Positions 3,722-43,519 of a stretch of DNA of 64,000 bases are shown in pieces. The position numbers and the translations under genes were made by a program. The stretch lies in the NCBI GenBank assembly GCA_002269645.1, contig NIVC01001861.1:62001-126000 (forward strand), given 5' to 3'. This DNA comes from Macrostomum lignano (taxonomy: Eukaryota). Each line of letters starts with the position of its first letter. Position 1 is the stretch's first letter. The notes below the pieces were generated by a model that saw only the letters and a list, made by a program, of their open reading frames with translations, made no database searches and was not told the origin of the DNA.

Positions 3722-6700
3722 TCACATTTCCTCCGGATTGATCCACTTATCGAAGAACTCGGACGGGAAAAACTCGCCGCCGCAGAACGGCACCAGCAGT
3801 TGGCGCGCCTGCCGCCAGCCAGCCGGGCCCAGGAAGCCGAGCCCCAGCAGCAGGCGGGCCACCAGACGGTCGAACTGGCGAATCGTCAGGCCGTCGGGTG
3901 GACTGCCGGCCAGCTCCTCGGCCGGGGCTCTGGCCGGCCCGGGCAGGCAGGGCCAATCGGACAAGCGCCGGGAGAACTGGCGCCAGAGCCGGTGGCGGGC
4001 CAGCCTGTGAGAGCGGGGGCGGGCAGGGGACAATGAAGGTCAACGACTCAACGGCATATTTTCAAACTTTCGTAGCGTAAATACGAGCCATGACAGTCAC
4101 AGCTGTCATAAGTTTAAGCCTCTAACTCATTTTCATTGTAATCCTTATTGCTTTAGGAAAAAACTGCTAGCTGAGCACTACTTACTAAGTAGCTGCATTT
4201 CATAGGCCCAAAATTTCATACGGCCGACGTCTTGAAGTCTTGAACTAGCGGAAGTGACTAGCAAGGACTATTAGACGAATATGAAATTTCGAGCTTTAAG
4301 CGACCGACAAAATTTATATAGCTTATAATAATAATAATAACTGATTACAGCTGCCTCAATCAGGCCAAGTGTACAACCGACAGCTCAGCCGCAGCTATTG
4401 CGCGGCGCATCTGAAGGCTGCGTACGGCTGTTCAGTCCAAGGACTGGGGGGTCGCCACACACACCCTCAATTACCCCAGCTAATGCTGCACCAATTTTAC
4501 AGCTGGCAGAACTGAAGCAATGCAGAGTTAAGTGTCTTGCTCAAGGACACAAATTTTGTTACAGTGGGATCGGGAATCGAACCCCCGACCATCAAGTCGT
4601 GAGCCCGACGCTCTAGTCACTAGGCTACGATCCCTTTGAACTCCCTTTGACTGTCAGTAATTTATACGGTCAATATCTTTTACTTACGGAGCGATTCCTC
4701 ATCCCTAAATTTCCAATTAGAAAGCCCGCACTACTAATTTCCATTCCGATCAACAACTGCATTCAACGCTAGCAGCGACCCTACCGAGCCAGCAGATGCG
4801 GCGTTAGCGACGTCTTCAGCGCCAGGCGGCAAAGGCGGACCTCCTCGACAGCGGCCGACCAGTTGTACTCGGCGGCGAGAGCCTCGGCGCAGATTTCGGC
4901 CGCGGCGTCACCGGAGCTGCCGCTGTCGCAGTTGGCGCTTAGGCGAGCGTCGACTAATTCTTAGCGACAGCAATAGAAAGGGTTAGTGGCGAAAACGGTT
5001 GATAGATTCAATATCACCCGGTCTTTAACACAAATAACTTGAAGAATTTTGGCTCGTGTTTATGTTTCTATCAACGTTCGAGTGTAGCAATAGATGCCAG
5101 GAATTGAATTACTTAGTTATCTATCCTTGTATGCCTGTTCTAGAGTGGAAGGGATACCTGTTCCAGAGTGGAAGGGATGCCTGTTCCAGAGTGGAAGGGT
5201 GCCTGTTCCAGAGTGGAAGGGATGCCTGTTCCAGAGTGGAAGGGTGCCTGTTCCAGAGTGGAAGGGATGCCTGTTCCAGAGTGGAAGGGTGCCTGTTCCA
5301 GAGTGGAAGGGATGCCTGTTCCAGAGTGGAAGGGATGCCTGTTCCAGAGTGGAAGGGATTCCTGTGCATGAGTGGAAGGGATGCCTGTTCCAGAGTGGAA
5401 GGGTGCCTGTTCCAGAGTGGAAGGGATGCCTGTTCCAGAGTGGAAGGGATGCCTGTTCCAGAGTGGAAGGGATGCCTGTTCCAGAGTGGAAGGGATACCT
5501 GTTCCAGAGTGGAAGGGATGCCTGTTCTAGAGTGGAAGGGATGCCTGTTCCAGAGTGGAAGGGGTGCCTGTTCTAGAGAGGAAAGGATGCCTGTTCCAGA
5601 GTGGAACGGATGCCTGTTCCAGAGTGGAAGGGATACCTGTTCCAGAGTGGAAGGGATGCCTGTTCCAGAGAGGAAGGGATGCCTGTTCCAGAGTGCAAGG
5701 GATGCCTGTTCCAGAGTGGAAGGGATGCCTGTTCCAGAGTGGAAGGGATGCCTGTTTCAGAGTGCAAGGGATGCCTGTTCCAGAGTGCAAGGGATGCCTG
5801 TTCCAGAGTGCAAGGGATACCTGTTCCAGAGTGGAAGGGATGCCTGTTCCAGAGTGGAAGGGATGCCTGTTCCAGAGTGCAAGGGATGCCTGTTCCAGAG
5901 TGGAAGGGATGCCTGTTCCAGAGTGGAAGGGATGCCTGTTCCAGAGTGGAAGGGATGCCTGTTCCAGAGTGGAAGGGATGCCTGTTCCAGAGTGGAAGGG
6001 ATGCCTGTTCCAGAGTGGAAGGGATGCCTGTTCCAGAGTGGAAGGGATGCCTGTTCCAGAGTGGAAGGGATGCCTGTTCCAGAGTGGAAGGGATGCCTGT
6101 TCCAGAGAGGAAGGGATGCCTGTTCCAGAGTGGAAGGGATCAGCGAAACTCACTAGTCCGGAAGCTTCCGACGGCAGGGCCCAGAGTCACTACCATGTGT
6201 TTACTAGACAAGCGCTGCTAACAAGTGGAAGGATTCTAAGGAATGTAGCTATGATTTTAGTTTAGCCCCAAATTATTGCGACTGCACTTGGCATCGAGCC
6301 TGCAGTGCTGGCACCTCAGAGCGCCGTGCCAGACCCACAAATCCTACAGATTCCTCTCAATATCTTACCGGCTCCAAAAGTGGCCTGGAAGTCTCGCAGA
6401 GCTCGGGTGAGAAGACCGAGAAGTCCGCCGCCGCAGCCGTCGCTGCCCACCTGCCGCAGCTGTCGCCTGGCAACAGCAAAGAACAGACGCGAGGCCAGAA
6501 GATGCTTCAAGCCGTCTGGCAGAGGCTGGCCAGTCACAGCCTCGGACAGGCTGAAGCTGCACAGCTCTCCAAGGACCACTCTCGGCCGGGAGTTCAGCCA
6601 GCCGTCCAGGGCTGCCTGCAGGTCCCAGTCGCCGCCGCGGTCGCCAGCCACCGGCCACCGAGGCTCGAAGGCGAGTCGCCGCAGCAACCGGCAGGCGGCC

Positions 6701-9306
6701 TCGTCCTCGGCCAGTCGGTCGGACACCAGCGCGTCCAGCTGTCCGATTCTGTCCGATGCGTCGGCAGGCAGCGGCTTGGAGCGGCAGGCAAAGAAGGACA
6801 GCAGGCGGCACAGCTCCAGCCAGCTGCGGCCACTCAGGCTGTCCCGCAGTTGCCAGAACTCGGCGAGGCTCAGCGTCCGCTCCAGGAGTCCATCGGCGAG
6901 ACGGCGAGAGAACTCGGCCAGCAGATCCACGTATTCGGCTCCGAGCTGGTCGCGGAAGTGAAGACAGTCGTCCAGCGGCTGCCACAGCTCGGACAGAGAC
7001 AGCAGACGGGGCAGAAGCTGCATTGGGGACCCGCCTTGACGCCACAGATCCGGGAAGTGGCGGGCGAACACTTGCGAGAGCAGCGAGGCGCGCAGAAGGT
7101 TGCGGTAGCTGAGAATTGAAGGCAGTTGGGTAAAAATTACGAAACTGGGGAGTAAGATTGCTTTAAATAGAAACACTGCATGCTCAGGTCTGAACGAAAG
7201 GATGTTACGAGTAGTTCAGACTAACGAAATCATCATTTGAAGCCCTCGATAGGCTTCCGACCCCTTCACTAAGGGACCCTTTCTTCTTTTAGAAGAACAG
7301 CTACTTCTTGAGTGACGATCTCTGATTTAGACTGTAGAGAATGTCTGTTCCAGAGTGGAAGGGATGCCGGTTTTAGAGTGGGGGAAGGGATGCCTGTTCT
7401 AGAATCCAGAGTGGAAGGGATGCCTGTGCATGAGTGGAAGGGATGCCTGTTCCAGAGTGGAAGGGATGCCTGTGCATGAGTGGAAGGGATGCCTGTTCCA
7501 GAGTGGAAGGGATGCCTGTGCCAGAGTGGAAGGGATGCCGGTTCCAGAGTGGGAGGGATGCCTGTTCCAGAGTGGAAGGGATGCCTGTTCCAGAGTGGAA
7601 GGGTGCCTGTTCCAGAGTGGAAGGGATGCCGGTTCCAGAGTGGGAGGGATGCCTGTTCCAGAGTGGAAGGGATGCCTGTTCCAGAGTGGAAGGGATGCCT
7701 GTTCCAGAGTGGAAGGGATGCCTGTTCCAGAGTGGAAGGGATGCCGGTTCCAGAGTGGAAGGGATGCCTGTTCCAGAGTGGAAGGGATGCCTGTTCCAGA
7801 GTGGAAGGGATGCCTGTTCCAGAGTGGAAGGGATGCCTGTTCCAGAGTGGAAGGGATGCCTGTTCCAGAGTGGAAGGGATGCCTGTGCCAGAGTGGAAGG
7901 GATGCCTGTTCCAGAGTGGAAGGGATGCCTGTGCCAGAGTGGAAGGGATGCCGGTTCCAGAGTGGGAGGGATGCCTGTTCCAGAGTGGAAGGGATGCCTG
8001 TTCCAGAGTGGAAGGGATGCCTGTTCCAGAGTGGAAGGGATGCCTGTTCCAGAGTGGAAGGGATGCCGGTTCCAGAGTGGAAGGGATGCCTGTTCCAGAG
8101 TGGAAGGGATGCCTGTTCCAGAGTGGAAGGGATGCCTGTTCCAGAGTGGAAGGGATGCCTGTTCCAGAGTGGAAGGGATGCCTGTTCCAGAGTGGAAGGG
8201 ATGCCTGTGCCAGAGTGGAAGGGATGCCTGTGCCAGAGTGGAAGGGATGCCTGTTCCAGAGTGGAAGGGATGCCTGTGCCAGAGTGGAAGGGATGCCTTT
8301 ACAAGAGAGGGTGTTTCGTTAGCAAAACTTACTGATCGGGCTTCAGACTTCGGATGACATGCGTCAGCGTGCCAGTGACCAGAGAACCTCTAGGCCGGCT
8401 ACCCTGGGCACTGGTAGATACAGTCTCCTCAGCGAGCCTGGCGCCCCATCTCATAGACAAACGTGACACCAGACGAGATAACAATGCAGCGGGGCTGTTT
8501 CTCGAAACAGCAGTCTCAGGCGCAATAGAGGCCTCGGCCTCAGCCAGCGCGGGCGCAGCTCTGGCAGCGAAGTCAGCCAGGCCAGAATCAGCATCGGGCC
8601 CATCGTTCCAGTCAAGAAATTCGAGGCCGAATTGCACCAATAGGAAACGGGCAGGGCCCCTGGCATTCCTATGAACAGACAGGATTTGAATTGCAGAGAC
8701 CAGGTGACGAGCTTCGAACACCAAAACAACATTAGCCTGCTTGGCGAGGCGCCAGACGATATCGGAAAAGACGCAGAGAACTTCTGGCTGCGCGTTCGCC
8801 TGTTGGAAAAAGAAGTCGATTAAGGCTGGCTGCTGATCTTTTAGGCGAATATACAGCGTTGGGGAGGTCCGTGGAAGATTAAGCGCAAGGCGAACAAGCG
8901 CCTGGGCGAAGGCGCCGTCATTGACAGACAGTTCGCATACGGCAAAGAGCTGGCAGCAGAAGTCGGACCAGCCATCTTGGCTATTCGAGGTAGTCAGCAG
9001 GTGAAAACCTGGCAGCAGTGTCAACGGTCTGACCCGATTAATGACAGTGCGGAATGGATACCTGGGCTGGTGGTAGCGCACAGAATAAAAGACTTGGCCC
9101 TGTGGTAGCACCAGGCGTGTCTGAAAACCAAATAAGTTTCTCGAAAATTCGCTAGGTTGAACTGAAGCGCGAAAAGCGTCACAGGTGACAGTGAGCTCCA
9201 GCTCTAGGTTTCTGTAATAATCATGCACATTCCCAATGCTTGAACTCCTCGAGGTGGCAGTTAGGCCAGAGAAGGGCAAGTAGAACTTTTGCACCTGGGA
9301 ATCAGC
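3722..9306 (-). CDS. Multi-exon gene (>=723 aa) with a degenerate NACHT/STAND-like domain; 5' exon not located
   Basis: Exons 9306-8333, 7108-6369, 4959-4785 and 4004-3722 join in matching phases (2, 1, 2) with GT-AG sites and end in TGA. NACHT-like order: HLLTTSNSQDGWSDFCCQL (Walker A position), LYIRLKD, LIDFFFQQ, NVVLVFEA (Walker B position), GSPMQL (GxP-like). Gene structure is well supported; the domain call is tentative. Confidence 0.7.
4325..4634 (-). mobile_element. tRNA-derived CORE-type SINE, copy 1
   Basis: On the minus strand: A-box-like TAGCCTAGTGA, B-box GGTTCGATTCC, CORE-like TGTGTCCTTGAGCAAGACACTTAACTC...CTGTAAAA, and a (TTA)n tail. Near-identical copies lie at ~40.7 kb and ~61.3 kb. 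Confidence 0.85.
5133..6140. repeat. 23-bp minisatellite (intronic)
   Basis: Unit GATGCCTGTTCCAGAGTGGAAGG, roughly 40+ copies. Confidence 0.97.
7343..8297. repeat. 23-bp minisatellite, same family as 5133-6140 (intronic)
   Basis: Same unit GATGCCTGTTCCAGAGTGGAAGG in the same orientation. Confidence 0.97.
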
Positions 9307-14489: not shown

Positions 14490-15269
14490 GAATTTTAAAT
14501 CCAGTGTCTCTGTGCATGCAGCTGGACACAAGATTACACAAGTCTGTTGCAAAAGCTGGTTCAAGACGACCCGCAGGAACGCATGCAACCACTTCGGTCG
14601 GGTATGGTCCACAGAGATTTCACGCGGACACAACTCCGCCTGGTTTGCGGGGCAGCTGAACAGGTGGGTAACTTTATCGGGTTCCAACAGCAGTCTGGAG
14701 TCCGGAGTCGATCCGTGCCGACGCCCTAGCTGGATTGTCGACTCTGGCTTGAAAATCATGGAGCAGTTGGCATAAGCTGGATCAGCGCAACTGCGCCTGC
14801 AGGATGCACAGATGGATCTCAGGCCGCGGTCGCCAATGACACAGTTAATTGTGGGGCAGGCCGTCCAAAGTGTCCTAAACATCCTCAGCACGATCCCAGC
14901 AGCCGCGTCTCAAGGATGTCCCTAGCCGGAATCAGAATCCAGTTCACGTTGAAGCACACCGCCCGTGAAAATGAAGGTCTTCAAGAGCCTGTGCAGAAGC
15001 AGTGACAGGTGGTTGTTGTAGATGAAACCAGTGTAGGACACCTAACTCGTTCGGAGCTTGAACTGGAGCGACAGAGAGGAGATTGCGCTGGCGATTGAGC
15101 AGCCAGCCGTACTTCACAGTGGGGATCAGCTTTGGAAGTTAGAGCAATGCAGCCGGTGATGCAGCGGATGGCCGGCGTTCTGGGACGGTCTGCAGTTGAG
15201 TCCAGAAGGTCTGGGAGATGAAGGGCCTCAGACAGACACGGCGTAGTCTAGCAGACTTCTGTGAAGCGC
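14490..15269 (-). mobile_element. Decayed non-LTR retrotransposon (I-group-like LINE), 3' part, interrupted by the Gypsy element
   Basis: Frameshifted motifs RSLLDYAVSV*GPFISQTFWTQLQTV, QNA-AIRCITGC...HCE and C-terminal HLFSCPAN. It continues beyond the LTR element as ADKVQKRTSILRYLAGTT (28175-28255). Confidence 0.72.
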
Positions 15270-15924
15270 TGAAGTGACACATTTTGGCTCTAGAAAGTTC
15301 CCATCCAGATGGAATGTATTTTAACCAACGAATGCGCTCCAACTAGCAAAAGCTGAGGACACGACCCCAACCTCAACCAATGAAAAACAGTTATGTACCA
15401 TCCAATGCGATCAAGACTGAAAAGTACTATAAAAGCTCATGTTAACCAACCAAGAAGCTCGCGCCTCCCTGGCCTTTTCTCTCTTCCGCCTCTCTTTCGC
15501 CCTTCTCCTATCTTACCTCTTTGACTACTTTTGATTGACACTGCCAGGGTCTCGACCCAAACACTAAAACTGATAAATTGACTCACTAAAACTAAAACAA
15601 CAACCAACCCACGTTCCACAATAGACTGAACCTTCGGTTCCCCCGAACACTTAGAAACCCCTTGGAACTCGAACAAAACGAGCTTCTTATTTGGAATTCC
15701 ATCTTAGACATTATATTTTGTAAGATAACATCTCGAGATTGTGACCATCAAATACAACGGTCTGTAAGTTAACATCAAGTGTTTGCATCATCAGGAAAAG
15801 TCAGTTGAATCCGCCGCCTCAGTTATTTGGCTCTCACATTGATATTTGAAGTAGAACAAGAGCCATAGAAGTGAGAGACCAGAAGAAGAACAATAAAACC
15901 CACATATTATTTTAAAATATTTCA
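15270..15924 (+). repeat. 5' LTR
   Basis: TG...CA termini, TATA-like CTATAAAA (~15427) and AATAAA (~15893). It differs from the 3' LTR by 8 substitutions and 1 indel by manual comparison. Confidence 0.95.
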
Positions 15925-15925
15925 C

Positions 15926-15939
15926 TGGTTCCCTGACCG
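15926..15939 (+). promoter_or_regulatory. Primer-binding site complementary to the tRNA-Glu 3' end
   Basis: TGGTTCCCTGACCG lies 1 nt after the LTR end and is complementary to ...CGGUCAGGGAACCA of tRNA-Glu (recalled consensus). Confidence 0.85.
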
Positions 15940-18405
15940 TACTTTTCCTCCGATGCGTTTCACCACAATAGCCGCCATGCCCTACATGGGGTAGACAGCT
16001 ATAGGCGTGGCTGATGGGTGCGAACGGTTGGACTGGCTTCTCCCCCCCTGATCCCCTTTGAGCATTCGAGACTGTCAATAATACATATTCGAAGAATGAA
16101 TCGTAAATCACGAGCTCTTAAATTTAAATTCAGAATTCAAATCGGTTCTAAGTTTTGTCCAGTGCACTGAGACCTGATTCACGTCATTTCAAATTCAAAG
16201 GATCCATGAAAGTCAATACATTATCGTTCCGGAACAATTACAATTTCAATTCAATTCAAGAAACGTCGTCGAACGTCTGATATCGAGTTCTTATTCTCAA
16301 GCCTCAGAGCTTCAATGCAGAAATTCAATTCAGTTATTCTGATCCTCAATTGTTCAAGCTTCAAAGCTTCGATTTTTCTAAGACCGCGGCATCATCAATT
16401 GTTCAAGTTTATTTAATGTTGGACGCCTCTTTCTTCACTGCTTTTCCACAGAATAGCAACGTTTGCTCTGGACTTCCTCATACAAGTATGAGACTCTCCA
16501 AAGCGACTGCGCCATTCGTTTTTCCTCCTCGGTTTTTCCCAGTGTGGCCACATCCAGAAAACTGGCTTATCTCAGATTCTCTGCCCAGTTAAGCGCCCGA
16601 AAGAAAGAACAAAAACGCAAAAAACTTGACGAGCTATTCAAACGAAGTCACTACAGCAAATATTAATCAAACTCTGGAGCCACCAATTTCTTGCTGTCAG
16701 AAAACTTCTTCGCTTATCAGACAGGCTGCTTGCCTGACCATTCATTATCTTCCTTGATTAAAGCCCACGATTCGCTGGTTGCCGAGCCTGCGTGCTCCAT
16801 CCGGAAAACCTTTTTGCTTATTTTTGCAGACCGCTTGTCTAGCCTTCCATCATTTTTTCTTGATTAAAGCCAAAAAACTTACTGTTTGCAGACTCCATGA
16901 GCCCCATCCATCAAATCCTTATCCACCCAAGTTTTTTTTCGGATTGTTGATTCTGGTGGTTGCCCTTTATAGATCATTTTGATGTAGAGATTAGGATGCT
17001 TGGGAATTTTCTTGTGTGTTTAATCAACTTCAGTGCCCTCCAACAAATCCTTATCTTAAACAAGCTGCCCAAGTCAGACTTCGCGCGCATACTTAATCTC
17101 CCAGAGAGACCTCTTTTCTTGATTAGAACCATCACTCAACTTCATCTCCCACGAGAAAAATCTTTTTCTTAATCAAACTGTCCAGGCCAGCCTTATCATG
17201 CCACTTCATCACCGGCCCAGCGATGTTTTTTCCGCAATCTCTGACAACCGACTTCCCCTGGGATCTGTCCCTAGCCCCCTCCCGTTTCGCATGATGGATT
17301 AAGACCAAAATAACCTTAACTTTTCTTCCATCTCCCTATTGCCAGTGGCCAGAGCCGTTTGATACCCCACAGAGCTTGTATTCTAGTTATTTTGCCAGTT
17401 ATTCTGCTCTCGGCTTTACAAAAAACTACATTAACGCTATCTATTACCTACCTTATTAAAATAGAACTTTGCCCATATTTTCCACCTTTTCTTAAAAGCA
17501 GCCTGCGTTGATTTAAATAGTTAAACAGGTTGGTTTGGTCGTGTATTTTGCAAGCATCTACACACAGAGAGGGTGGTCGCGGCACCAACAGTATGTAAAT
17601 ATATGTACACTAATAAGTAATTCAATTATCGCTAGTATATCTACAAAAAACTATACCAAAAATTACAAAAACATGAAAATTAAAATTAAAGATACATCAA
17701 CCTAAAGTCAGTTATTCCCCAAATTAAATTACACCAGAATAAAGTTACCCTAGCGTCGTCCCGCTACAATCTCCTCCTCGACTTGCCGGAGTTCCTGCCA
17801 CCATTCGAGGCGGCGCTCACACCACTTGCGGACGGGTGTGACTAGCCGCCTGAACGCTGACAGGAGCCGTGAACCCCGCCGAGCACCCCGCTTCGTGTCG
17901 CGGGGCCAGCCGTCCTCCAGCAGCAATGCGAGTTCCCACAACCGCCGACAGAGCCACCACCATTGATCCGCCGTCTTCTTCGTCCTTTCGAGTTGGGCTT
18001 CCATAGCCATAATGGGTTGTCGAGCAGTCGCGGTTCGGGAATGGTTGAATTGACAGAGTCGCGTAGGAGTAGCAAACCTTATCCGTTCCCCTTCAGTTTA
18101 ACCAATATATGCGCCCCGCCTCCCAGGCATAGCTTGGAATTCCCCCAACCAACCAATGAGGACGCCGCAAACTCTGTTCCCAACTCCCTTCAGAATTTGC
18201 CATCAACAGCACTATTCTGCTAGCACTTTTTGCAATACTATAAATCGACAGGATCCCGCACTTTTGGGTTAATCGCCTCTCCAGTACCACCGAAACTGAC
18301 TGCAAGATCGACATTTCGCATTTACAGCCTCTACCGACTCAGCAAACACCGTAAATACTCTCAATTGTGTATTCTTACTTCAATATGGCCGGATTTCAGC
18401 ATATC

Positions 18406-19042
18406 CATGCCCTCATCAAGGTCGATCCTCACCGCTTCTGATGATGTCCCGCTCTTTGACTGTATGTGTGAAATGTACTATTGCCAACATCGCCGCAATT
18501 TTTTTTATTACCACCCCTCCTATCTTTCGCCCTTCCCGTTTCCTCGCACTGTTAAGCCTGCTATTCCTGATTCCCTACATCATAATCTCTTCAATTGTAA
18601 CGGACGCTTCGATCTGGTAGCCGACTTCGCCTTTACCATTGCCGACTCCTACCTATCCCGGATCCACGACCACTGCCAATGTTCTATTCCGGGACAGATA
18701 GACAATATTCTGTTCCACCTCGAGGGCCTCCATACCCCACCCCTGCGAGGAACCTTTAAGTCTGCCATCGTCGAGCTAGCCATCCACCGCCAGGAGTTCG
18801 AGGTGCTCTTCCGCACCCTGCGTTGTGTCAATTTCCACACCGCTAATCCTCTCAACTACGAATATCTCCGCCGAATGTACCGTGACAAAATCGATGGCAT
18901 GGAATGCGAACGTTATGATCAACTGCTCCAGAGCTTTGTTCCCCCCGTTTCCGACTCACCCTCGAGCCTGTTTAACCTTGCCTCACACCAAACTCCGCCA
19001 CCACTTCTGGTCGACCTGGACGCGCCATCGCGGCAGTTCTAG
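18406..19042 (+). CDS. Accessory ORF upstream of gag, unknown function (~211 aa from first ATG)
   Basis: Open frame 18230-19042 with ATG at 18406 and Cys/His clusters (CMCEMYYCQH, HDHCQC). An overlapping frame continues to 19265. No family recognised. Confidence 0.5.
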
Positions 19043-19828
19043 AGGTCAGGCCATTGAAGCTCACTTCCTCACCCTCCCTCGGTTCCACCGGGAACACATA
19101 GTTGGCCATCCCGAGTTCACCGACGACCCCTGTTTTGAAGTTAGCGACTCTCCTTGCCCCACACTCGAGGACACATCACTTGTGCCGAAGAAAACGGTTC
19201 ACCACCGCGACTACCGCTGGCAGGTCCTACGCTTGGATTGCCTCCGCATACGGTGGTCGCCTTAATTACCTTATTCCCTCCCCCTAAGCCGCAATTTCTA
19301 TGGCCTCAGCACCAACCCCCCTCGGGCCCTGTAAATATACTATACTCTCTCATTGTCTTTTGAGCACAGTTTCATTTCCAACTCACTTTCTGTTACCTTC
19401 TCAACTGTATTGTGTAAACACTATTTTGAAAATGATCCTTTGATCGACAAAAATTATAAAATTCAAAACCTCAAAAAGCACGTCTCCATTTATTTTTCTT
19501 CGCTTCATCTATGCTAGACTATTCACATAGTGTTTTCGTAGCCTGCGACAAACTCAAAATGATCATTAGATCGCAAAAAAACAATAAAACCAGGAAAACA
19601 CAAAAAACAATACAATTGTTTATAGTTCATTTCGTATAACCCGTAGTGCTCTTATCATGTTAAATTTGCAAAATGATCAGTCCGATCAATAAAAATTATA
19701 AAATTTAAAAAATTAAAAATAGAAAATTTACAAAACTACGTTTGCTTAAATTATGAAATTAACCCCCTAGCTGAAACTGTCAGAAAATTCAAAATTCAAA
19801 TGCGAAATTCAAAAGCCAGAACAATTTC

Positions 19829-19902
19829 TCAGAAGAAAAAACTGCCGACTTCAAGAAAAAGAAAACTGCCGACTTCAAGAAAAAGAAAACTGCCGACTTC
19901 AA
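19829..19902. repeat. Short tandem repeat (3 x ~24 bp) in the retroelement leader
   Basis: AAGAAAAAGAAAACTGCCGACTTC-type unit x3. Confidence 0.85.
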
Positions 19903-20444
19903 TGATACAAATTCGATTTTATTGGCCACCACTGATGTCCGTCTAGTCCAACATTCAGGAGCTCTTTTATCAAATTCAGTTTCATAAAAGTTTCAGAACC
20001 GATTAAAAAGACAGTTCAATTCAAAATTTCAGAGTTCAAAACTTCCAAATTCAAGGTTTCAGAACCGATCAAAAGGCAGTTTAATTCAAAATTACTTCGA
20101 TTTTCAAAGCTCGTTGCAGATCACAGTTAAAAAAATCACACAGTCTCTCTTTTTCTCCCTTCCCCAGCCAGTCCGCCAACCGCAACCCTGAAAGCCATTG
20201 CCGTTTGCTCACTTTGAACTTGACACTCTCTCTTTATTTTGCTATCAGTTACATTTCTGTGATATCGTTCCCCCGAAATTATTGATCGTATTCTTGTTGA
20301 TGACCTCACCTGTCCGAGATTTACGTTCCGGACCAGTATTCCAAAGCTCAAATCTTAACAGACCTCCTGAACAAAATTTAGAAATTTCCGACCGTAGTAG
20401 GCGAACAGCCTCCACGAAATAGTTCACCAGTTCCTAATCTGTTT

Positions 20445-23400
20445 GTGCCAGATAACGTTGAGTTTACTAACCCTCTTGCGGATCATTTTGAACAAAACCG
20501 TACACACTCGCCAGCACCCAGTTCCATTCTAACAGACGTGGACGAAACAGTTCAACAAGTCCCAAACGCTATTGCTGAAGAATCTACTCTAGACATAGCT
20601 GATCAGGAAGCCGCTCCCCATGTTGATGCTGCAGCCACAAATGCTGTCCGCGAACTCACTGATGTTATGAATCGCAGTCTACAATTGCAATCGAATCATC
20701 CCGTCTCAGCTACTGCTCTTGCTAAAATTCGTCAATCCCTGAAAGGAATCGACCAAATGCATGACTTCCGTTCCTTCACTGAAGAGTTCGACTTGATCAC
20801 ATGCTCCTTTGGACTATCGGAGAACGCAAAGATTCGGCTCTTCCCGCGACTACTGAATGACCTTCTTAAACTCGAATACAGTCGCCTTTCTGCCGTGGTC
20901 CAAGCCTCTTATCCAGCCACCATTGAGGCACTATCTCAACGCCTTCGGGAAGTAACCATTGGTTCGGCTCTAACGCTGCATAATGCAACAACCCGGAAGC
21001 AACAGTACGGCGAACCGTTCCTGTCCTATTTCACCGACATTCGTCGAAAGCTCCGGTCAGCTATGCCGGAAATACCGGAAGAATTTCCGGAAGATGCCGG
21101 TCCGGAAACACTACCCGCGAACCAAGCTGTCATCGACCAGCGAAACCGAGACTTTCTCGCTACCCTGATGGCTACGACTATCAACAATGCTCTACCCTAC
21201 ATCAAACGAGAACTCTTGAAGCAAAATATCACCACGGAAAGTACGCTAATCAACAAGGCCATCCGCGCTGAACAAATCCGCGACTCCACCATGGACTCTG
21301 ATGGCACTGACTTGAAGGCTCTGACTGAGCGCCTAACAACCCTAGAGAAAACAACGAAGGAAGCCAATCAACAGGTAGTTGCCTCTCTGCAAACACAAAC
21401 CAAGCCACTCACTGCTAATGTGCAACAAAAGCCGACTTGTTTTCATTGCGGTCGACCTGGACATTATGCCGCCGACTGTCGTCGAAGGAATGACGAACAG
21501 CCTCGTCCCTTCCGACCTAACTCTGACGATCGAAGAAACGCAGCTCACTACGGCTCGGACGCCCCGCGAAATCGCTACCAGCAGGTGCCGCCACGGTTGA
21601 CCTGTAACTATTGCCGGAAACCAGGACACTCTATTAACCAGTGCCGACTACGAGCCCAACGTACACAAGGCTACGGTCCACCGGCGACACAACAATCACG
21701 ATTCCCACCTCGTCAAGACTACAGAAATCGGCCTCAGCAACGCTATCCGCCTCGATACAACGACACCAACAATCAACGACAAGCTCTGAGATTCGCGCAA
21801 CAACAATATCCTCCAATACGCGCCATCACTGCTCAGGATCCTAAAACGTCCCACCCAGGATGGAATCAACAGCCGCAGATTGGATGGACGACTCACGACG
21901 CTCCCGAGTCTGCCCAACTGATGCACATCGCTACAGTTGATGAACGCCCACCGACTTTTGGAAACGAAATTCGCTACTCTGGAGACGCTAAGCAGCTGAA
22001 ATCTTTACTCAAAAAACCGACTACTGCCGCTGCGACTATCAACTCTATTCGCCTTTGTACGGTTGAAAGAGTGACTAACGCCTACACTCCACCGAACAAC
22101 AACAACAACCGCAAGAATACCGTGAAAGCTTCCGTTGGAATTCGCCAATCACTACTGGCACTTTTTCTCCTTTGCCTAGTAACTTCACTCTTCTCACTAG
22201 CCAACGCTACTCCGGTAACGACGTCAACTCCACCATCGATCGAGAGACAATCTCACGAGGGCTTCATTGACACGCCAATGGTCTGTCCGTACATCCAGAT
22301 CCCACGAATCTTTACGATACCACACGAAATCCGTTGTGAACAGCTCAAACACCAAACCACACCGACACTTCCGTTAAAACTAGAACTCTACACAACTAAT
22401 TTCTACAGAACGCACATTGCTGGCTACTCACGAGTAGTACAACCACTTCTGAGTATTATCAAAAATACTTCGAAGCCTAACAAATTCGTCTGGACGAACG
22501 CTGCCCAAACAGCCTTTGAAAAACTGAAACAACTTCTCTCTACGGACATACTACTGGTTCATCCAAATCCGCGAAAACCGTACTTCCTGCACACTGACGC
22601 CTCGGATACCGCCATTGGAGCAGTACTCTCACAGCTAGATGACAACAACCATCAACGCCCGGTTGCCTACATCTCTAAGACGTTAAGCTCAACTGAACAA
22701 CGCTATTCACCGATTGAACGCGAAGCATACGCCATCTATTGGGCAATAAAGAAGCTACACGTGTTCCTCTACGCTTCTTACCAACAGTTCCACGTCTTCA
22801 CTGATCACCAGCCACTTAAGAGACTATTCAGCGACAAGCAGCCAATTTCAAAACGACTTCAGAAGTGGATTCTAGCGATACAAGATTACAACTTCACCCT
22901 TAACTACGTGAATGGCAAATCAAATGTAGTAGCAGACTGCCTTTCACGCATCTTCAAAGTCTGTCAGATACAATCGCTGTCAACATTCAACGGACTGCAG
23001 GCTGCTATTGATCAAGATCCACTATTGTCTACAATCAAAGCGCTTCTATCGGAACAGTCACCCACACACGAGCTGTCCAAGAAAGATCAACAATATGTTC
23101 GCCGACACCTGGCACGTTATTTCCTGGACGGAAACACCCTGTACTTTGAAGATGACGAAGGACGAAGCCGCCTCGTGATACTAACACGCTATCGTGAAGC
23201 TCTTTTGACAAGCAACCACTCGACAGCCCTTGGTGGTCATCTAGGTCACCAAAAGACAGCAGACAAAATCAGTCACTTCTATTACTGGCCTACACTACGA
23301 CAAGATGTCTACAATTTCGTTAACAACTGCAAAGTCTGCCACAAAGCGAAAACAGCACCTCGACTGCGACCACTGCACAAAGCCGTAAAATTCAACGAGT

Positions 23401-24425
23401 TTTTCTCTCCTTTGGCTATTGACCTTGTAGGTCCACTGCCACCAGCTTCACACGGCCGCGACGTCTTCAAGTACATACTCACGGCCCAATGCGGCGTTAG
23501 CAAATTCCTGTTCACTATCCCGCTAACTGAGACAACTTCTGCAACTATCTGCAACAACCTCTTCAACCGTGTGTTCGCTTTCGCAGGACTACCAGCACAC
23601 ATCATCTCAGACAATGGACCCCAATTCATCTCGCAAGAATTTCGAGAGTTTATGGGTGCCCTTGGAATACACCTGATCTACACCTCGGTGTACCAACCAT
23701 CCAGCAACTTCGTCGAACGCGGACACAAGACACTGAAGCAAACTCTTACGGCCTTCGTCCATGACAAACCAGATCTCTGGATTTACTTCCTACCTGCGGT
23801 GACACTAGCAATCAATACCGCCGCCCACTCAACGATAAACGAATCACCATTCTACTTGTTCTTCGCTCGAGACTTTCTGCCACCCAACGCACGTATCATG
23901 GAACACCAGACAACTGCATACACGGACGTTATTAAACCAGTCAATTTGACCTGTTCAGCTATTTTGCTTGCCAGAGAAGTCGCCAAGGAACTTCTGCACA
24001 ACTCAGCTGAACAGCGCGCTGAAAACTCTGATAAGAAGACCAACAGCCGCTACATACGCCCAGGTACACGATGCTATTTGGATGTCTCAGCAACGAAGGA
24101 GACAAAATTCTCCAATCCTTATCGTGGCCCAATGCGTCTACTAGCATGGCTCTCCGATCAGAACGCACTAATTTCTGACGTCAACCGGCCAAGCGAACGA
24201 CCAATCGTGATACATGCCTCCAAGCTGAAACCATGGCCTGGAGATGGACTCAGCGCTGGACCTAGTCACCTACCTGAGTTCACAACTGATGACATTCAGG
24301 TCCACCACAACCATCGGCCGCCATTGAGCAAGTCCATCGCGCTGCAAACCACGTCCACTGATGAGCCACCAGTCCAGCCACAGACGCATGGCTACAACCT
24401 AAGATCGAAGAACAAGAAGTTGTGA
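20445..24425 (+). CDS. gag-pol: Gag / env-like fragment / RT thumb / RNase H / integrase polyprotein (1326 aa)
   Basis: Two CCHC knuckles (CFHCGRPGHYAADC, CNYCRKPGHSINQC), hydrophobic LLALFLLCLVTSLFSLANA, TNFYRTHIAGYS (RT thumb), LHTDASDTAIGAVLSQ and VFTDHQPL (RNase H), HLGHQKT...YYW...CKVC, AIDLVGP / SDNG / FVER (integrase) and PYRGP. No D[ST]G protease or YxDD motif. Confidence 0.93.
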   Translation: MPDNVEFTNPLADHFEQNRTHSPAPSSILTDVDETVQQVPNAIAEESTLDIADQEAAPHVDAAATNAVRELTDVMNRSLQLQSNHPVSATALAKIRQSLKGIDQMHDFRSFTEEFDLITCSFGLSENAKIRLFPRLLNDLLKLEYSRLSAVVQASYPATIEALSQRLREVTIGSALTLHNATTRKQQYGEPFLSYFTDIRRKLRSAMPEIPEEFPEDAGPETLPANQAVIDQRNRDFLATLMATTINNALPYIKRELLKQNITTESTLINKAIRAEQIRDSTMDSDGTDLKALTERLTTLEKTTKEANQQVVASLQTQTKPLTANVQQKPTCFHCGRPGHYAADCRRRNDEQPRPFRPNSDDRRNAAHYGSDAPRNRYQQVPPRLTCNYCRKPGHSINQCRLRAQRTQGYGPPATQQSRFPPRQDYRNRPQQRYPPRYNDTNNQRQALRFAQQQYPPIRAITAQDPKTSHPGWNQQPQIGWTTHDAPESAQLMHIATVDERPPTFGNEIRYSGDAKQLKSLLKKPTTAAATINSIRLCTVERVTNAYTPPNNNNNRKNTVKASVGIRQSLLALFLLCLVTSLFSLANATPVTTSTPPSIERQSHEGFIDTPMVCPYIQIPRIFTIPHEIRCEQLKHQTTPTLPLKLELYTTNFYRTHIAGYSRVVQPLLSIIKNTSKPNKFVWTNAAQTAFEKLKQLLSTDILLVHPNPRKPYFLHTDASDTAIGAVLSQLDDNNHQRPVAYISKTLSSTEQRYSPIEREAYAIYWAIKKLHVFLYASYQQFHVFTDHQPLKRLFSDKQPISKRLQKWILAIQDYNFTLNYVNGKSNVVADCLSRIFKVCQIQSLSTFNGLQAAIDQDPLLSTIKALLSEQSPTHELSKKDQQYVRRHLARYFLDGNTLYFEDDEGRSRLVILTRYREALLTSNHSTALGGHLGHQKTADKISHFYYWPTLRQDVYNFVNNCKVCHKAKTAPRLRPLHKAVKFNEFFSPLAIDLVGPLPPASHGRDVFKYILTAQCGVSKFLFTIPLTETTSATICNNLFNRVFAFAGLPAHIISDNGPQFISQEFREFMGALGIHLIYTSVYQPSSNFVERGHKTLKQTLTAFVHDKPDLWIYFLPAVTLAINTAAHSTINESPFYLFFARDFLPPNARIMEHQTTAYTDVIKPVNLTCSAILLAREVAKELLHNSAEQRAENSDKKTNSRYIRPGTRCYLDVSATKETKFSNPYRGPMRLLAWLSDQNALISDVNRPSERPIVIHASKLKPWPGDGLSAGPSHLPEFTTDDIQVHHNHRPPLSKSIALQTTSTDEPPVQPQTHGYNLRSKNKKL

Positions 24426-24729
24426 ATGATCAAAAATCTTCTAAATTTCTTTTCTCCTTTCTTTTCCTTAACTGACAATATTGCTTTCTCTTCCTTTCTT
24501 TCTCTTCTTCTTTTCTTTCCTTCTTTTCTAACAATTTTGCTCTCTCTCCCTGCATTGCGACACTTTACGTGACTATATTGACGAACTGACACAAATGAAC
24601 TTTTATTTTCTGTTTTATCAACAAAAAGCTACAAAAATTTTCTTTCTTTTCCCTCTTTACATTGCAGAGCTCACACGCTAAAACAACATTTTGTGTATCT
24701 ATTGCTTTTCTCCCTTTTTCCTTTCTCTT

Positions 24730-25659
24730 ATGGATCCATTTTCGCAACCAGTGGATATCCGACCACAGTTAAATCATGATCTTATTTGCCTCGCAACCGT
24801 TGTTGCTTGGTTCACTGAAGCAATATTTTATTCTGAAACTATTGGTGAATCCCAACGGCTACGCATGGCCTCCGCTTTCTTCTCTCGTTTTTATGTTATC
24901 CGCCATCATCGCTTTTATCCTAAGATGCTCCGCGTCCTGCGAATTAGTCTATTTGGTGTGCTGCGTCGTACTCACTCACGACCACGTATACAGAACTTTT
25001 CTCCCACTATGACTGGCGTTCTACGCCGCAGCTTCGTACCAATTATACATTTTCTTTTCTCTCCTAATATGTCTATCGACGATTTCTTTCAACTCTCTGC
25101 TTCTACTCTCCCTCAATCATGCCTGCGCTTTAACCAAGACACTTGGCCTTTGTTGCTTTCCTCTCTGCGCTACCCATGGCAACAATTCCGCCATGATGCT
25201 GCTAATCTTTCGGCGCAAAAGTTAACATCTACGCTCCAAAATTATTTAACCTCCTTCGATTATCTCGCCCCTTATGTTTATCAAATTTTTGCTCCGTTTT
25301 TTCCCCGTCCTACTAAGAGCGCTATCATACGCACGCTAAATCGTCTGTATCCGCACAATTTTTTCTTCACCCACGCTGTTTTCATTCTCTCAACGCGTTC
25401 AAGAAGCTTTGCTTTTATAATTATCGATTTTTATTCTCGCTCGGTAGTTGCCCATACTATCTTCCCTTTCTCTTGTCCTCCGCTTCGTCGATATTTATAC
25501 AATATTCACCGTATACGAAATGCTCATGTTGGCTACCCTAACACCTTGCCAGAGTATGCCGCTCTTCATACCTTCTCCATCAAGCGTATTAAGCATTCTC
25601 CTCCTTCTGATCTTAATATTAATTTTGCTCGACTGGCATACGTTTTTTATATGATTTGA
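24730..25659 (+). CDS. Accessory ORF downstream of pol (~309 aa), weak integrase-fold resemblance
   Basis: Uninterrupted ORF from ATG 24730 (MDPFSQP...) containing THAVFILSTRSRSFAFIIIDFYSRSVVAHTI. Confidence 0.6.
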   Translation: MDPFSQPVDIRPQLNHDLICLATVVAWFTEAIFYSETIGESQRLRMASAFFSRFYVIRHHRFYPKMLRVLRISLFGVLRRTHSRPRIQNFSPTMTGVLRRSFVPIIHFLFSPNMSIDDFFQLSASTLPQSCLRFNQDTWPLLLSSLRYPWQQFRHDAANLSAQKLTSTLQNYLTSFDYLAPYVYQIFAPFFPRPTKSAIIRTLNRLYPHNFFFTHAVFILSTRSRSFAFIIIDFYSRSVVAHTIFPFSCPPLRRYLYNIHRIRNAHVGYPNTLPEYAALHTFSIKRIKHSPPSDLNINFARLAYVFYMI

Positions 25660-25867
25660 TTCACCATCATCGCTCACTATTTTAATCCGCTTTTTCTCCA
25701 ATATTGAGCGTTGAAACGCCACACATTTTTTCCCAAAAAATACTCACAAATATTTTCCGTTTCTCTGCCTATTACTCCTCCGTTATTTTGCGCTAACCTT
25801 TGTAAAGCCTATGCTATTTTTTTCTCTGTTATTCTGTCAACTGCTTTTTCGAACGTCATCACGCACT

Positions 25868-26130
25868 AACCTGCCCAACCCTGCTCAACCCTGCTCAACC
25901 CTGCTCAACCCTGACCTACACGACTGCTGCTCTGTGCCTGGTCTTTGCCAATTGCTGCCCCTGGCGCTGCTGTAACCAACTTCAAACAACAACCTTGCTC
26001 TACACAACTGCCGCTCTATGCCTGGTCTCTGCCTACTGCTGTCTCTGGCGCTGCCTCAGCCAAAGTCGAACAACAACTTTGCTCTACCCAGCTGCCGCTC
26101 TATTTTATGCCTGGTTTTTGCAAGTCGCTC
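25868..26130. repeat. 10-bp (ACCCTGCTCA) x4 followed by a degenerate ~87-bp tandem duplication
   Basis: CTGCCGCTCTATGCCTGGTC...CAACAAC(C/T)TTGCTCTAC recurs about 2.3 times. Confidence 0.8.
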
Positions 26131-26699
26131 GACCTCTGGTGCTGCTTCCACCTAAGTCAACCAACTAGCACTAAGGCATATGGCTCAACAACGTCTGTTC
26201 TTTCATGACTGCTCAGTCTGCTCATCTGACAACTTCGGCATCACATCATGTGGTGGCCCTGAAAAAGGCCGTTGTAACGTTCAAAGGACGGCAGAGCCGG
26301 CAGAGCAGCCAGGGCGCTAACACGGCCGCTTCTACCGACTCCACCGAAGGCGCTTCCGCGTCGGCCGCGGCGGCCGGTGTTTCTGATGGGCCCGCGCGAC
26401 AGCAACAGCGACGGCAACAACGATAGCACTGTTGGCAGACCGAGCACTGGCCCAACAGTGACAGTAACACTAGTGCCCCAGCACCACCAGGACCACGATA
26501 GTGCAAGTCCAGCGGACGTCAGCTTTATCACAATGCTCCTGCGACTGTCGTGCTAGATCTCCTAGCAGAAAGCGCAAGTTCTTCATGGTACTCATGATGC
26601 TAATTAGAGTGGGAATTAATTTGACCAAAAACACTTTCGGTTAAAAAAATCACCTAACTCTCCTCGTTCTGTTTTAGTTTGGTGTTATATACCCCTTTT

Positions 26700-26959
26700 G
26701 GGCCTTTTCATATTACCAATTCCAGAACCAGAATCGGTTCGGAATTCCAAGAAAAACAGCAGTATAACTATTAAACTCTGTTAATATTTGACTGCCTTAA
26801 CAACCTAAATTAGCACAATTTTTCACTTTCTTCTTGGCGATTGTCATTCAATAATAAAAACTGTATAGCACGTATCTCCCTCTAGTTATGGAGACAAAAA
26901 GTTATACTTCACAAATTGGTTCTGGTTCTGGAACCAGAGCAAGCAATATGAAAAGGCCC
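26700..26959. mobile_element. PIF/Harbinger-like MITE inside the Gypsy 3' region
   Basis: TIRs GGGCCTTTTCATATT / AATATGAAAAGGCCC, internal inverted CCAGAACCAGAA, and a 3-bp TTT flank on both sides. Confidence 0.75.
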
Positions 26960-27518
26960 TTTGACTGTACAATTTTTCCTGGAATTTTCACTATTTCATG
27001 CTCCCTATTTAAAAGATTTTAACCTCATAGCTTGTACATATGATTTATTAACTGCGCGGCTCCTTGCTACAACCACCCCAACTTTCACTGTATAACGATT
27101 TTTATTACCTTCCTTCTAACTCAAACGCGTTTTCATTTTAAGCTTGTGTCGCTAAACCCCCGTTTTGCTCTGTACACCTATTTTATCGATTTTTTTGGTT
27201 AACCCTCGCTACGTTTTATTCCATCCTTGCTTAACTAGTTTAGCTTCGCCTAACTAAAGGCCCTCTGCGCTATCCCTTCTTTTGCTATTTAGACTGATGT
27301 TGTACTTTAACCTATGTTACCTTGCTTAAATTGGTTCCCTTTTACTCAAACATTTTTGCTAACATTATTCACTGCGCACTATTTTTTTCTGCAACAACTT
27401 TTCTCGTTTAATACAATGCGTTATCTTTTTCTGCAATTTTATCAATTTTAGCCCCCTGCTATACTTTTTCTGTTGTTATGCGCTCGGAGGGCCTCGCTTC
27501 CCCAAAAAATAGAGCGAA

Positions 27519-28174
27519 TTAAGTGACACATTTTGGCTCTAGAAACTTCCCATCCAGATTGAATGTATTTTAACCAACGAATGCGCTCCAACTAGCAAAA
27601 GCTGAGGACACGACCCCAACCTCAACCAATGAAAAACAGTTATGTACCATCCAATGCGATCAAGACTGAAAAGTACTATAAAAGCTCATGTTAACCAACC
27701 AAGAAGCTCGCGCCTCCCTGGCCTTTTCTCTCTTCCGCCTCTCTTTTGCCCTTCTCCTATCTTACCTCCTTTGACTACTTTTGATTGACACTGCCAGGGT
27801 CTCGGCCCAAACACTAAAACTGATAAATTGACTCACTAAAACTAAAACAACAACCAACCCACGTTCCACAATAGACTGAACCTTCGGTTCCCCCGAACAC
27901 TTAGAAACCCCTTTGAACTCGAACAAAACGAGCTTCTTATTTGGAATTCCATCTTAGACCTTATATTTTGTAAGATAACATCTCGAGATTGTGACCATCA
28001 AATACAACGGTCTGTAAGTTACCATCAAGTGTTTGCATCATCAGGAAAAGTCAGTTGAATCCGCCGCCTCAGTTATTTGGCTCTCACATTGATATTTGAA
28101 GTAGAACAAGAGCCATAGAAGTGAGAGACCAGAAGAAGAACAATAAAACCCACATATTATTTTAAAATATTTCA
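27519..28174 (+). repeat. 3' LTR
   Basis: Direct repeat of 15270-15924 with the terminal TG mutated to TT. Preceded by purine-rich AAAAAATAGAGCGAA. Confidence 0.95.
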
Positions 28175-28399
28175 GCGCCTCATGTAAGTGGTGCCGGCCA
28201 GGTAGCGCAGAATGCTTGTTCTCTTCTGGACTTTGTCCGCTAGGGTGAAGACGTCTCAAAAAAGACAGCTAAATTGGGGTCGAAAATGATCCTCATAATT
28301 TTCAGGTACAGCGCTTGCGGAAGTGGCGCACCGTTTGATATAAACACGCAGTTAACGCGGGTTAGAAAGGTGGCCGTAAATTTTAAAGTTGAGAAAACT

Positions 28400-30400
28400 G
28401 CATCCACTCCTACGAGGCCGACCCTCCCCGTGGCAGTAAGCATGCAGGGTGGGTGGGACGCTGACGCTTCTTCCCGGGCCGCCAAAGCGAACCGTCCCTC
28501 CCGGCAGCATGACCCCGCGGGCAAGGGTGAGCACGTTACTGAGGGCGGAGCCGACCGACGCCCAACGCGCAGCACCAGACGGCGTGGCCTGTTCCAGCGA
28601 GCAGCTGCAGTGGTCCGCACCGCCAAAATCAGTTAGCTGAAGCGAAAGGTCGCCGGGACGCTCAGGCGCACCAGTTCGTCCAGGGACGGTGAGGACGTCC
28701 CAGCTAACTGGGCCCAACCCCTTGGGGCAGGGCTGACTGGAGACGATCCGCCTGCCAAGACGGCTGGCTGTTCCAGGGCATTGGGCCACTCCGAGGTGGA
28801 AGACCCTGTCGCCGGTGGGCGAAGGGCGGCGAATGTCGCCTACTCCCTTCCGACTGGTCAGGGGTCGATCCTCTGTTGAAGGCACTCACGAACGACCGCG
28901 TTTTTCTAAACTTTCCCAGCTGTAGTAAAGAGACCTGATCGCTCGGTCACAGAGAGCTCTGAAGAGACTCTAGAGCTCATGCTCAGCAGTTTTTCCCTAA
29001 ATCCCCGACCTAGCAGGGCCCGCCTGACAACACCGTGAGAAGGCATGGCCTAGCAAAGCCTTTTATCACCAAAGACCACATTACTATAGAGCGGCAAGGT
29101 CCTTTAACTTGCTCAAGGCGCCTGGGCCCGATGGCATCTACCCAGCGTTCTTGCACGTGGCGGTAAAAAACCAACGCTTTTTTATTAAACCTCCTTTGTC
29201 GTCTCCTCCGAGCTTTGTGGAACTGGGAAATGTAACATTTGCATGGAGAGAGGCCCGGGTGGTCTTTAATTTATCCCAAGCCTGGGAAGAGCGACTACCA
29301 ATCGCGTATGGCCTTCAAGCCTATCTGCAGTCTCCCCTCTTTCTGATTTAAGCTCCTCGAAAGGCTGGTGCTTTGTCGCCTGCTCTCGGTCGAGCTGAAG
29401 CGCTTCCCACTCCACAGAACCAGCACACCTTCCGTGCGGGCAGGTCTACTGAGAGTGCCCTCCGTCATCGTTTACTTGGCGAGGGCCGTTCTTGGCAGCG
29501 GCTTTGCCCGTTCGCTTTTCCTGGACATTGAGGGGCCTTCGAAAATGTCATCTTCGAGGTCTTGGTAGAGCCCTGGAATCCAGGGCCACCCACCCTCACC
29601 TTGTCCGGTGGATCATGCTCATGATCCGAAACCGCACTGTTGGGGCCCACCTGAACGGCAGCTCAAACGGCGCATGTCCAGAAAGGGATCCTCAGGGCGG
29701 GTTACCCCTGTTCTCTAGAACAATGTCATGGATGAGTTGCTTTGCAGTGCTCTTCATGACCCTATTCTCAAGGTGGGCTATGCCGATGACGTGGGACCGC
29801 ATATGTCGACCCTCGATTTCTCGGTCGACACAACCAGAAATTTGCTGGAGCGTTAGGCAAACCAGATTCAGAAACTACAGCGGTTATATTTACCAACAAA
29901 CTGCTCTGGACCATGAAGCCCTCGCCCTCTGCCCTCTATATGGAAAGAGCATTTCTCTGCCGGCGCCCTTCTGCGGGCCACCGGGCCCCCATCCCTACCT
30001 CGGTGGTCAACTCCCGCGTTAAGCGCTGGGCTGACTCCGAGCACCTCCGCAGGTGGCACGACACTCGGAATTGCAGGAAATACCATGCTGCCATCCCCTG
30101 TTCCCTCCCCCTCCTGCGTAGAGCCCTCCTCAGGCTCAACCACAGAGACCTCAGGGCTCAGAGCAGTCAGCATGGCCCTCTCCGGGCATGGCTACTTCTC
30201 TCACCACCGCTTCCTTCAGGGCCAGGTACCCGAGAGCGGTGCCCCTTCTGCCGCTCAGGCAGTGAAAACGCTGAGCACTTTGGCATTGCCCGGTCTTCAC
30301 CAGAGACCAGGCTCATTCAACTCGGATCAAACCCGTTAAGTTCTCCCTGACGTTTGCAGGCCCGCGAGAGCATCCTGCTGCTCGCCCAGTAACTTCAGGG
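28400..30400 (+). mobile_element. Decayed non-LTR retrotransposon (R1/LOA/Tad-like) ORF2 remnant
   Basis: Frameshifted motifs in order: GWDADA (APE end), VRTAKIS*, KAPGPDGI (29115), FLDIEG[A]FEN (~29520), PQGG (~29690), GYADD (~29778), SGHG and CPFCRSGSENAEHF (CCHC, ~30241). Confidence 0.85.
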
Positions 30401-43300: not shown

Positions 43301-43449
43301 TTCAATTAGCGTTAAAAGCCGCCCTGAGAGACATTGGAAATCAAAGTGTAGACGAATTGCGTGACTATATTCAAAGTATTCAAGCTGCCAGCGCGCAGGC
43401 TAGCAATAGCGCTAATGATCGTCAGCTGTCTGGCTCAGCTGATGGCTGA
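40320..43449 (+). CDS. PPHLN1: Periphilin-like protein with N-terminal RRM (~315 aa)
   Basis: Exons 40320-40529, 41714-42087 and 43086-43449 (phases 0, 2). The C-terminus RKADIEAMYRKDCETFATVVKMLLRHDPSLDGPIQLALKAALRDIGNQSVDELRDYI matches the periphilin C-terminal domain. The N-terminus is RRM-like (TLYLRGFRPNVRPDDIRRYF...VALRFDSHEEA), followed by an R/S-rich linker. Confidence 0.88.
40685..40961 (-). mobile_element. tRNA-derived CORE-type SINE, copy 2 (intron 1 of the periphilin gene)
   Basis: Aligns with 4325-4634. Confidence 0.87.
41120..41316. repeat. 48-bp minisatellite x4 (intronic)
   Basis: CTGAGGCTTGGGGGCTGGCCCTCATGAGTGTCAATCGCACGGCAACCC unit. Confidence 0.93.
41438..41490. mobile_element. 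Diverged solo end related to the P-like MITE at 193-647
   Basis: CAAGGACTACTAAAGTA...CTCGTTTCTTGGAAACTTTTGAAG resembles the TIR CAAGGACGACTTAAGTA...CTCGTTTCTTAGAAAATTTTAGAAG. Confidence 0.5.
42104..43022. repeat. 34-bp minisatellite filling intron 2 of the periphilin gene
   Basis: CTCACTGTACACTGGCCCCAGCCAACTTCTGCCC, about 27 copies. Confidence 0.97.
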
Positions 43450-43519
43450 CGCAACGATTTTAGCTGTTATTATTACTGTGTACGGCAGGCAATGAGCCCT
43501 GCTTTTGTGGAGTTGAAGC

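Follow-up and report, generated by a model that had tools for sequence, protein, structure and literature searches.

The window, a stretch of 64,000 nucleotides from Macrostomum lignano (contig NIVC01001861.1, positions 62,001 to 126,000), carries at 15,270-28,174 a Ty3/Gypsy LTR element with an internal deletion. The hallmarks of such an element are present: LTRs with TG...CA ends, a short target-site duplication, a primer-binding site (PBS) and a polypurine tract. The features, all on the forward strand, are as follows.

15,266-15,269 (+): target-site duplication, 4-bp GCGC, with its second copy at 28,175-28,178
15,270-15,924 (+): 5' LTR, 655 nt, TG...CA
15,926-15,939 (+): PBS, starting TGG
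18,407-19,042 (+): accessory ORF of ~210 aa in the 4.4-kb leader, no Pfam match
20,300-22,142 (+): gag, with the capsid region and two CCHC knuckles (21,438-21,479 and 21,603-21,644)
22,143-22,208 (+): internal signal sequence from hydropathy (basic residue, hydrophobic core, ANA), with a putative signal-peptidase site after 22,208
22,209-22,400 (+): first 64 residues of a gB-type ectodomain, with two invariant cysteines and LxLY
22,399-22,400 (+): deletion junction, with ~4,424-4,425 nt gone, a 2-nt microhomology and the frame kept
22,401-22,889 (+): remnant of the RT thumb/connection, and RNase H (PF17919, E 2.8e-35; PF17917, E 4.2e-35)
23,190-24,425 (+): integrase (H2C2 zinc finger, DDE core and C-terminal region) up to the stop codon (PF17921, E 1.6e-16; PF00665, E 4.1e-12)
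24,730-25,659 (+): second accessory ORF, 3' of pol, ~310 aa, no Pfam match
27,504-27,518 (+): polypurine tract
27,519-28,174 (+): 3' LTR, 656 nt, its second base differing from the TG...CA pattern

The two LTRs differ at nine positions (eight substitutions and one gap). The PBS, which we take to be of tRNA-Glu type, has the same TGG start in sister family C. The first accessory ORF is 70% identical over 188 aa to that of L074, a copy of a second subfamily, and the second gave dN/dS values of 0.30-0.44 in three pairwise comparisons; neither has a counterpart in the sister-family stretches searched. The leader also carries a 22-nt unit in roughly three tandem copies 5' of gag (~19,830-19,900). 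Next to the 3' LTR, at ~28,900-30,400, are broken frames with a YADD-like motif, by eye probably a decayed non-LTR retroelement, and the window is rich in minisatellite arrays, with a unit length of 15-34 nt (5,100-8,300; 42,300-44,900; 48,900-49,600; 52,300-54,400; 61,800-62,900).

A single open frame at 20,382-24,425 (1,347 aa) contains the segment 22,000-22,405, which an earlier note, made from the letters alone, had read as an envelope-like piece between gag and pol. In the window copy a small indel near 20,395 shifts the reading frame, so that the gag start codon at 20,300 is not in phase with this long frame. All the peptides quoted in that note lie in this frame where it had placed them, the CCHC knuckles being followed by RQSLLALFLLCLVTSLFSLANA (22,143-22,208), FIDTPMVCPY (22,263-22,292), LKLELYTTN (22,374-22,400) and the RT thumb, which starts with FYRTHIAGY at 22,401 and has RNase H and integrase downstream. 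Pfam places a zinc knuckle 5' of the segment and RNase H and integrase 3' of it, and finds neither a protease nor an RT core in the window frame. The AxA site is a putative one, assessed by eye and from hydropathy; a similar hydrophobic stretch precedes the env in each sister family. When scored against profile A2, which was built from the envelopes of five other families and three library proteins with the window's own family left out, the env segment reached 33.6 bits. As none of 1,000 shuffles reached this value (747 were scored, the best at 6.1 bits), the match is real rather than due to chance.

The direct step from env to the RT thumb, on the other hand, which the same note had described, is a deletion junction and not natural anatomy. 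A search of the genome DNA gave 24 matches from 24 scored candidates at 91-100% identity, three of them being the same locus on different contigs, and the 23 matches besides the window all stop at query position 400-404. Downstream DNA was fetched for 16 of these 23, and every one aligns with the window up to 22,399, then has 4.28-4.42 kb of additional DNA, and aligns again from the same point, the junction 22,399/22,400 being found once in the genome, in the window. The deleted part comprises the rest of env, an insert described below, the TM helix, the protease and most of the RT. An origin of the junction as a spliced copy was rejected, there being no AG acceptor.

The natural frames of four undeleted copies run from a signal sequence through ~335 residues of cysteine-containing ectodomain, RQKRR, a Thr/Ser/Pro-rich insert and RNKR to ~285 more ectodomain residues, one TM helix and a tail of ~110 residues, followed by the protease (DSG), a spacer, the RT (YLDD) and RNase H. 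In this family, which we call family A, the longest natural frames measure 2,086 aa in L060, from gag to RT, and 1,753 aa in L035, from env to RNase H. Of the 16 copies, 12 read openly from gag into env, 11 from the TM helix into the protease and six from the protease to YLDD, and nine keep the insert in one frame with both basic (furin-type) motifs; the misses include motif changes. None of the 16 has the whole polyprotein unbroken; the interruptions lie at scattered places and could reflect either indels of the assembly or decay. In protein P0001 two hydrophobic segments only rise above the hydropathy threshold, and these flank the ectodomain at either end. The proposal of a gag-env-(pro)-pol order in one frame is supported for the family: the undeleted copies read Gag, class III ectodomain, TM, protease, RT and RNase H/integrase, with the ectodomain and its TM anchor in frame before the protease and RT of the full-length relatives.

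The pol order protease-RT-RNase H-integrase holds in the undeleted copies and in the sister families, the protease and RT core being those parts deleted in the window. The nearest solved structure to the RT is that of yeast Ty3 (E 1.7e-70, the next solved RT having E 1.7e-43), and a Ty3-type element, as against BEL/Pao, copia or a retrovirus, is also supported by PF17917, PF17919 and PF17921. Gag has its CCHC knuckles and a capsid region that is conserved across families, which gave no significant match to solved capsids. The spacer between protease and RT (L035:5596-6123 and its equivalents in five other copies) gave weak matches to dUTPases, the best with E 0.16; five of the eight listed sequences matched were dUTPases, and Pfam gave no dUTPase match. 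From its sequence this spacer is perhaps a decayed dUTPase fold, and a dUTPase at this position has been described in rotifer elements (PMC5408684).

A genome search with the C-terminal env piece gave 142 matches among 149 scored candidates, with identities down to 23%. At least seven related groups with the gag-env-pol layout are present in this genome. Their RTs are 33-77% identical to that of family A, and seven of 15 sister-family stretches have an unbroken gag-to-integrase frame of 2,458-2,866 aa with the same layout. The sister-family LTR pairs are 99-100% identical; for family G no LTR pair was found. With at least seven groups, several with unbroken frames and with LTRs this similar, the natural products (the cut sites, the Gag:Pol ratio and the tissue of expression) should be measurable in the host. 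Downstream of pol in sister family E (L049/L051, C2112) are two frames, 235 and 188 aa long from stop to stop, each with a cysteine pattern resembling that of a RING finger. A 298-aa frame 5' of a family B copy (L042, C1672) has motifs resembling those of a tyrosine recombinase. The 12-nt PBS and the 864-nt LTR length of family E are identical to those given for Platyhelminthes_Rhabditophora_Mlig_errantivirus_2 (PMC13524379), and family E is likely to be the same as, or near, this published element.

That the envelope might be a class III fusogen had been suggested from a short N-terminal pattern, and both profile and structure comparisons agree with this. Profile A2 matched EBV gB with E 8.5e-15, 21 of the 22 listed matches being herpes gB (E 8.5e-15 to 7.2e-5), and the N-terminal stretch retained in the window aligned weakly (12.3 bits) with the N-terminus of EBV gB. 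PF24664 was found in seven of the 11 envelopes of alignment A1, with E up to 0.1. The env of family A alone had no Pfam match and as a single sequence matched a solved gB (CMV gB) non-significantly, with E 0.35. Word-indexed protein searches with residues 765-1075 of P0001 and with alignment A2 found none among 3,664 and 7,593 candidates respectively; a full HMMER scan of the protein library gave 36 relatives. PF24664 is present in eight of the 15 library relatives scanned and a retroviral protease after the env match in seven, and two library proteins from other sources, P0032 and P0033, carry gag or a knuckle, env and protease in one chain. Two others, P0007 and P0008, have pieces of the element joined to laminin or glycosidase domains and are probably gene-model artefacts.

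An AlphaFold monomer model from a 40-sequence alignment had pLDDT of at least 70 in 477 of 866 residues and a pTM of 0.52, with a 49-residue central helix and the insert disordered; from a single sequence the model was unusable (pLDDT 35.8). With Foldseek the top match in the PDB was HSV-1 gB (E 5.2e-14), 31 of the 32 listed rows being gB and the remaining one a VZV glycoprotein, and amongst viral models it was the G of Nyavirus midwayense (E 8.3e-19). The TM-scores against gB in the PDB list are only 0.28-0.44, as would be expected from a 270-residue disordered stretch and domain movements. In the Atlas, the C-terminal env half fell with PF24664 clusters (0.91-0.93). A baculovirus F identity for the N-terminal half (0.85, below 0.9) was rejected, as it is contradicted by the predicted fold. 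A class III fusogen of gB/nyamivirus-G type is supported by these predictions as a statement of fold family.

By pairwise counts between natural copies, the env codons are under purifying selection, with dN/dS of about 0.1. Between the two subfamilies both env halves give 0.10, the insert 0.29 and the TM and tail 0.14, against 0.01 for the protease and 0.03 for the RT; for the window's own signal-plus-env segment the value is 0.09. Two rows in which the frames were out of register at the start or end, envN of L035 v L030 (0.37) and RT of L035 v L060 (0.24), were left out, as were the rows for family A v B, where dS was saturated.

In family A the insert is 204-250 aa long with 65-68% T+S+P, lies between the furin-type motifs RQKRR and RNKR, and varies in length with repeat number. 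It is also present in sister families B and B2, and is absent from the five other groups aligned. Families A, B and B2 form one clade in the env tree (100/100), in which the deeper forks are unsure and the branches long, and their envelopes are 43-46% identical. The motif 5' of the insert is a full R-X-K-R in family A only and a minimal R-X-X-R in B and B2, in which the motif after the insert is RIRR. The Thr/Ser/Pro-rich insert between two furin-type motifs is possibly a new trait of this clade. Inserts at this position of the env are not unique to it, given that P0030, a library gB-type protein from another source, contains a stretch rich in Thr/Ser as well as a long insert that follows RKKR.

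It is quite possible, if not the case that we favour, that the insert arose by neutral expansion of repeats in a loop that tolerates them, and is neither excised nor needed. The spread in length from 204 to 250 aa with repeat number and the absence from five sister groups would both fit with this, as would the known tolerance of gB for variable loops near its furin site. Against it, the insert has been kept in frame in three families of one clade whose envelopes have diverged to such low identity, there is a basic motif at either end, and its dN/dS is 0.29, a value that depends on an uncertain alignment of the repeats.

We consider it very probable that the undeleted copies encode, in one frame, Gag, a signal, a gB-type fusogen with its TM helix, protease, RT, RNase H and integrase, and that the polyprotein is likely threaded into the ER and processed into the parts of an enveloped particle by its own protease together with signal peptidase and furin. 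The gene order, the common frame, the fold family and the purifying selection on env have been shown above; from this layout we infer the processing steps as follows. Gag would be made in the cytosol, and the internal signal would then send the ectodomain into the ER, where signal peptidase would free it; Gag would thereby keep a membrane anchor until trimmed by the element's protease or by an intramembrane protease. The single TM helix would stop transfer, such that protease-RT-RNase H-integrase would remain on the cytosolic side, hung from the Env tail, and Pol would be packaged through Env and not as a Gag-Pol fusion. By clustering at the budding site, Env trimers would bring protease monomers into contact and take Pol along into the particle. 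Furin cleavage on either side of the Thr/Ser/Pro-rich insert, which is probably O-glycosylated, would prime the fusogen.

Searches of the linkers for a programmed -1 frameshift after Gag or Env found no stop and no shared slippery heptamer, one of the seven families having one. It follows that either the parts are made one to one, or extra Gag is supplied by a route at the RNA level. Retroelements usually produce far more Gag than Pol. Equal amounts of Gag, Env and Pol would be unusual for such an element, and there may be a spliced or truncated Gag message that has escaped notice. One alternative is that some of the parts are made from messages other than the one covering the single frame, with a spliced or early-terminated RNA giving extra Gag or Pol having its own message, so that Pol need not ride on Env. 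The usual excess of Gag and the very variable length of the linker from the nucleocapsid to the signal between families speak for this, yet the linkers have neither a stop nor a shared slippery heptamer, and the junction in the window is not such a spliced product, having no AG acceptor and having removed protease and RT. We regard this alternative as somewhat unlikely, and favour the single precursor.

Compared with its two closest copies, C1325 and C3269, the window has lost 4,424-4,425 nt across the 2-nt microhomology. Both share the flank downstream of the window element (98-99.6% identity over 6-10 kb) and so represent the same insertion on other contigs, undeleted and ~17.3 kb long. The region 9,300-34,900 of the window is present on both contigs with 89-98% identity upstream, as haplotypes or duplicated segments. 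That two contigs carry the same insertion undeleted, that the junction was seen one time and that many scattered indels are found among the copies might suggest that the deletion is an assembly error and the true locus is full length, but the clean junction with a 2-nt microhomology is typical of real deletions, and we think an error the less probable case. The reading of the family is the same whether the deletion is biological or an error of assembly. Taken as a real deletion, the window copy is an ordinary dead deletion derivative, unable to replicate alone as it is without protease, RT active site and Env anchor. The idea that the env segment was captured from the host, or came from an RNA virus by endogenisation and is decaying in one element, although its nearest predicted folds include nyamivirus and chuvirus-like glycoproteins, is refuted by its presence beyond this copy, at the identical place and in the identical frame in every sister family fetched, by a dN/dS of about 0.1, and by P0032 and P0033.

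The gene order gag-env-pol with a gB-type env is already published, since GAG-ENV-POL Ty3/gypsy 'errantiviruses' with an HSV/gB-type ENV have been described from Nematoda, Bryozoa and Platyhelminthes (Chary and Hayashi, eLife 2026, PMC13524379), a paper in which nematode elements with ENV before POL are credited to Sacco et al. 2022 and ectodomains flanked by two TM segments are noted. The gene order, gB-type env, Ty3/gypsy pol, LTRs and many near-identical copies are common to those elements and to family A, as, from hydropathy and the predicted fold, are an ectodomain between signal/TM and TM segments and conserved cysteines. By eye, the bryozoan domain I-II sequences of supplementary file 2 of that paper also have a pattern like that of the family A env. 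Family A itself appears to be unlisted. At ~17.3 kb it exceeds the 14-kb LTR-spacing filter used there; a search of the seven supplementary files of PMC13524379, with long cells truncated, turned up neither its PBS, which is a different one, nor two of its env motifs, and eight of the nine flatworm rows there give no PBS at all. The words 'mucin', 'polyprotein', 'single ORF' and 'in-frame' are absent from the main text, and processing of a one-frame gag-env-pol precursor does not appear to be addressed there; the figures may show inserts or a single frame. A literature search found no paper linking 'mucin-like' with errantivirus. The endogenous retroviruses described from nematodes by Sacco et al. 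2022 reportedly have a continuous gag-env-pro-pol frame, an env likened to nyamivirus glycoproteins and extra accessory ORFs, and we know of no double-flanked Thr-rich insert in them; their host phylum, Nematoda, would differ from that of family A.

Insect errantiviruses have an F-type env ORF 3' of integrase, whereas the env of family A is gB-type and upstream of pol, and the ORF 3' of integrase in the window element has no Pfam match, so that there is no F-type env there. With the class III fusogens (herpesvirus gB and nyamivirus/chuvirus G; PF24664, PF00606) the envelope shares the cysteine pattern, long central helix and fold at 7-13% identity in full-length structural alignments, but here it is encoded within a retroelement polyprotein and the insert sits between the fusion/PH domains and the central helix. 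The p27 peptide of RSV F lies between two furin sites, and filovirus and nairovirus glycoproteins have mucin-like domains. The likeness to the family A insert is that of a low-complexity, probably glycosylated stretch with basic cleavage motifs in a fusogen precursor; these glycoproteins belong to other fusogen classes, and the likeness is an analogy only. We would tentatively suggest that in the one clade the gB-type env carries a mucin-like peptide of 150-250 residues between two furin sites that is shed or serves as a glycan shield, as in RSV F and filovirus GP, and that the whole group packages Pol via the Env tail from a membrane-threaded polyprotein in the manner of flaviviruses. If the insert is excised, a retroelement envelope would have converged on a trick of RNA viruses.
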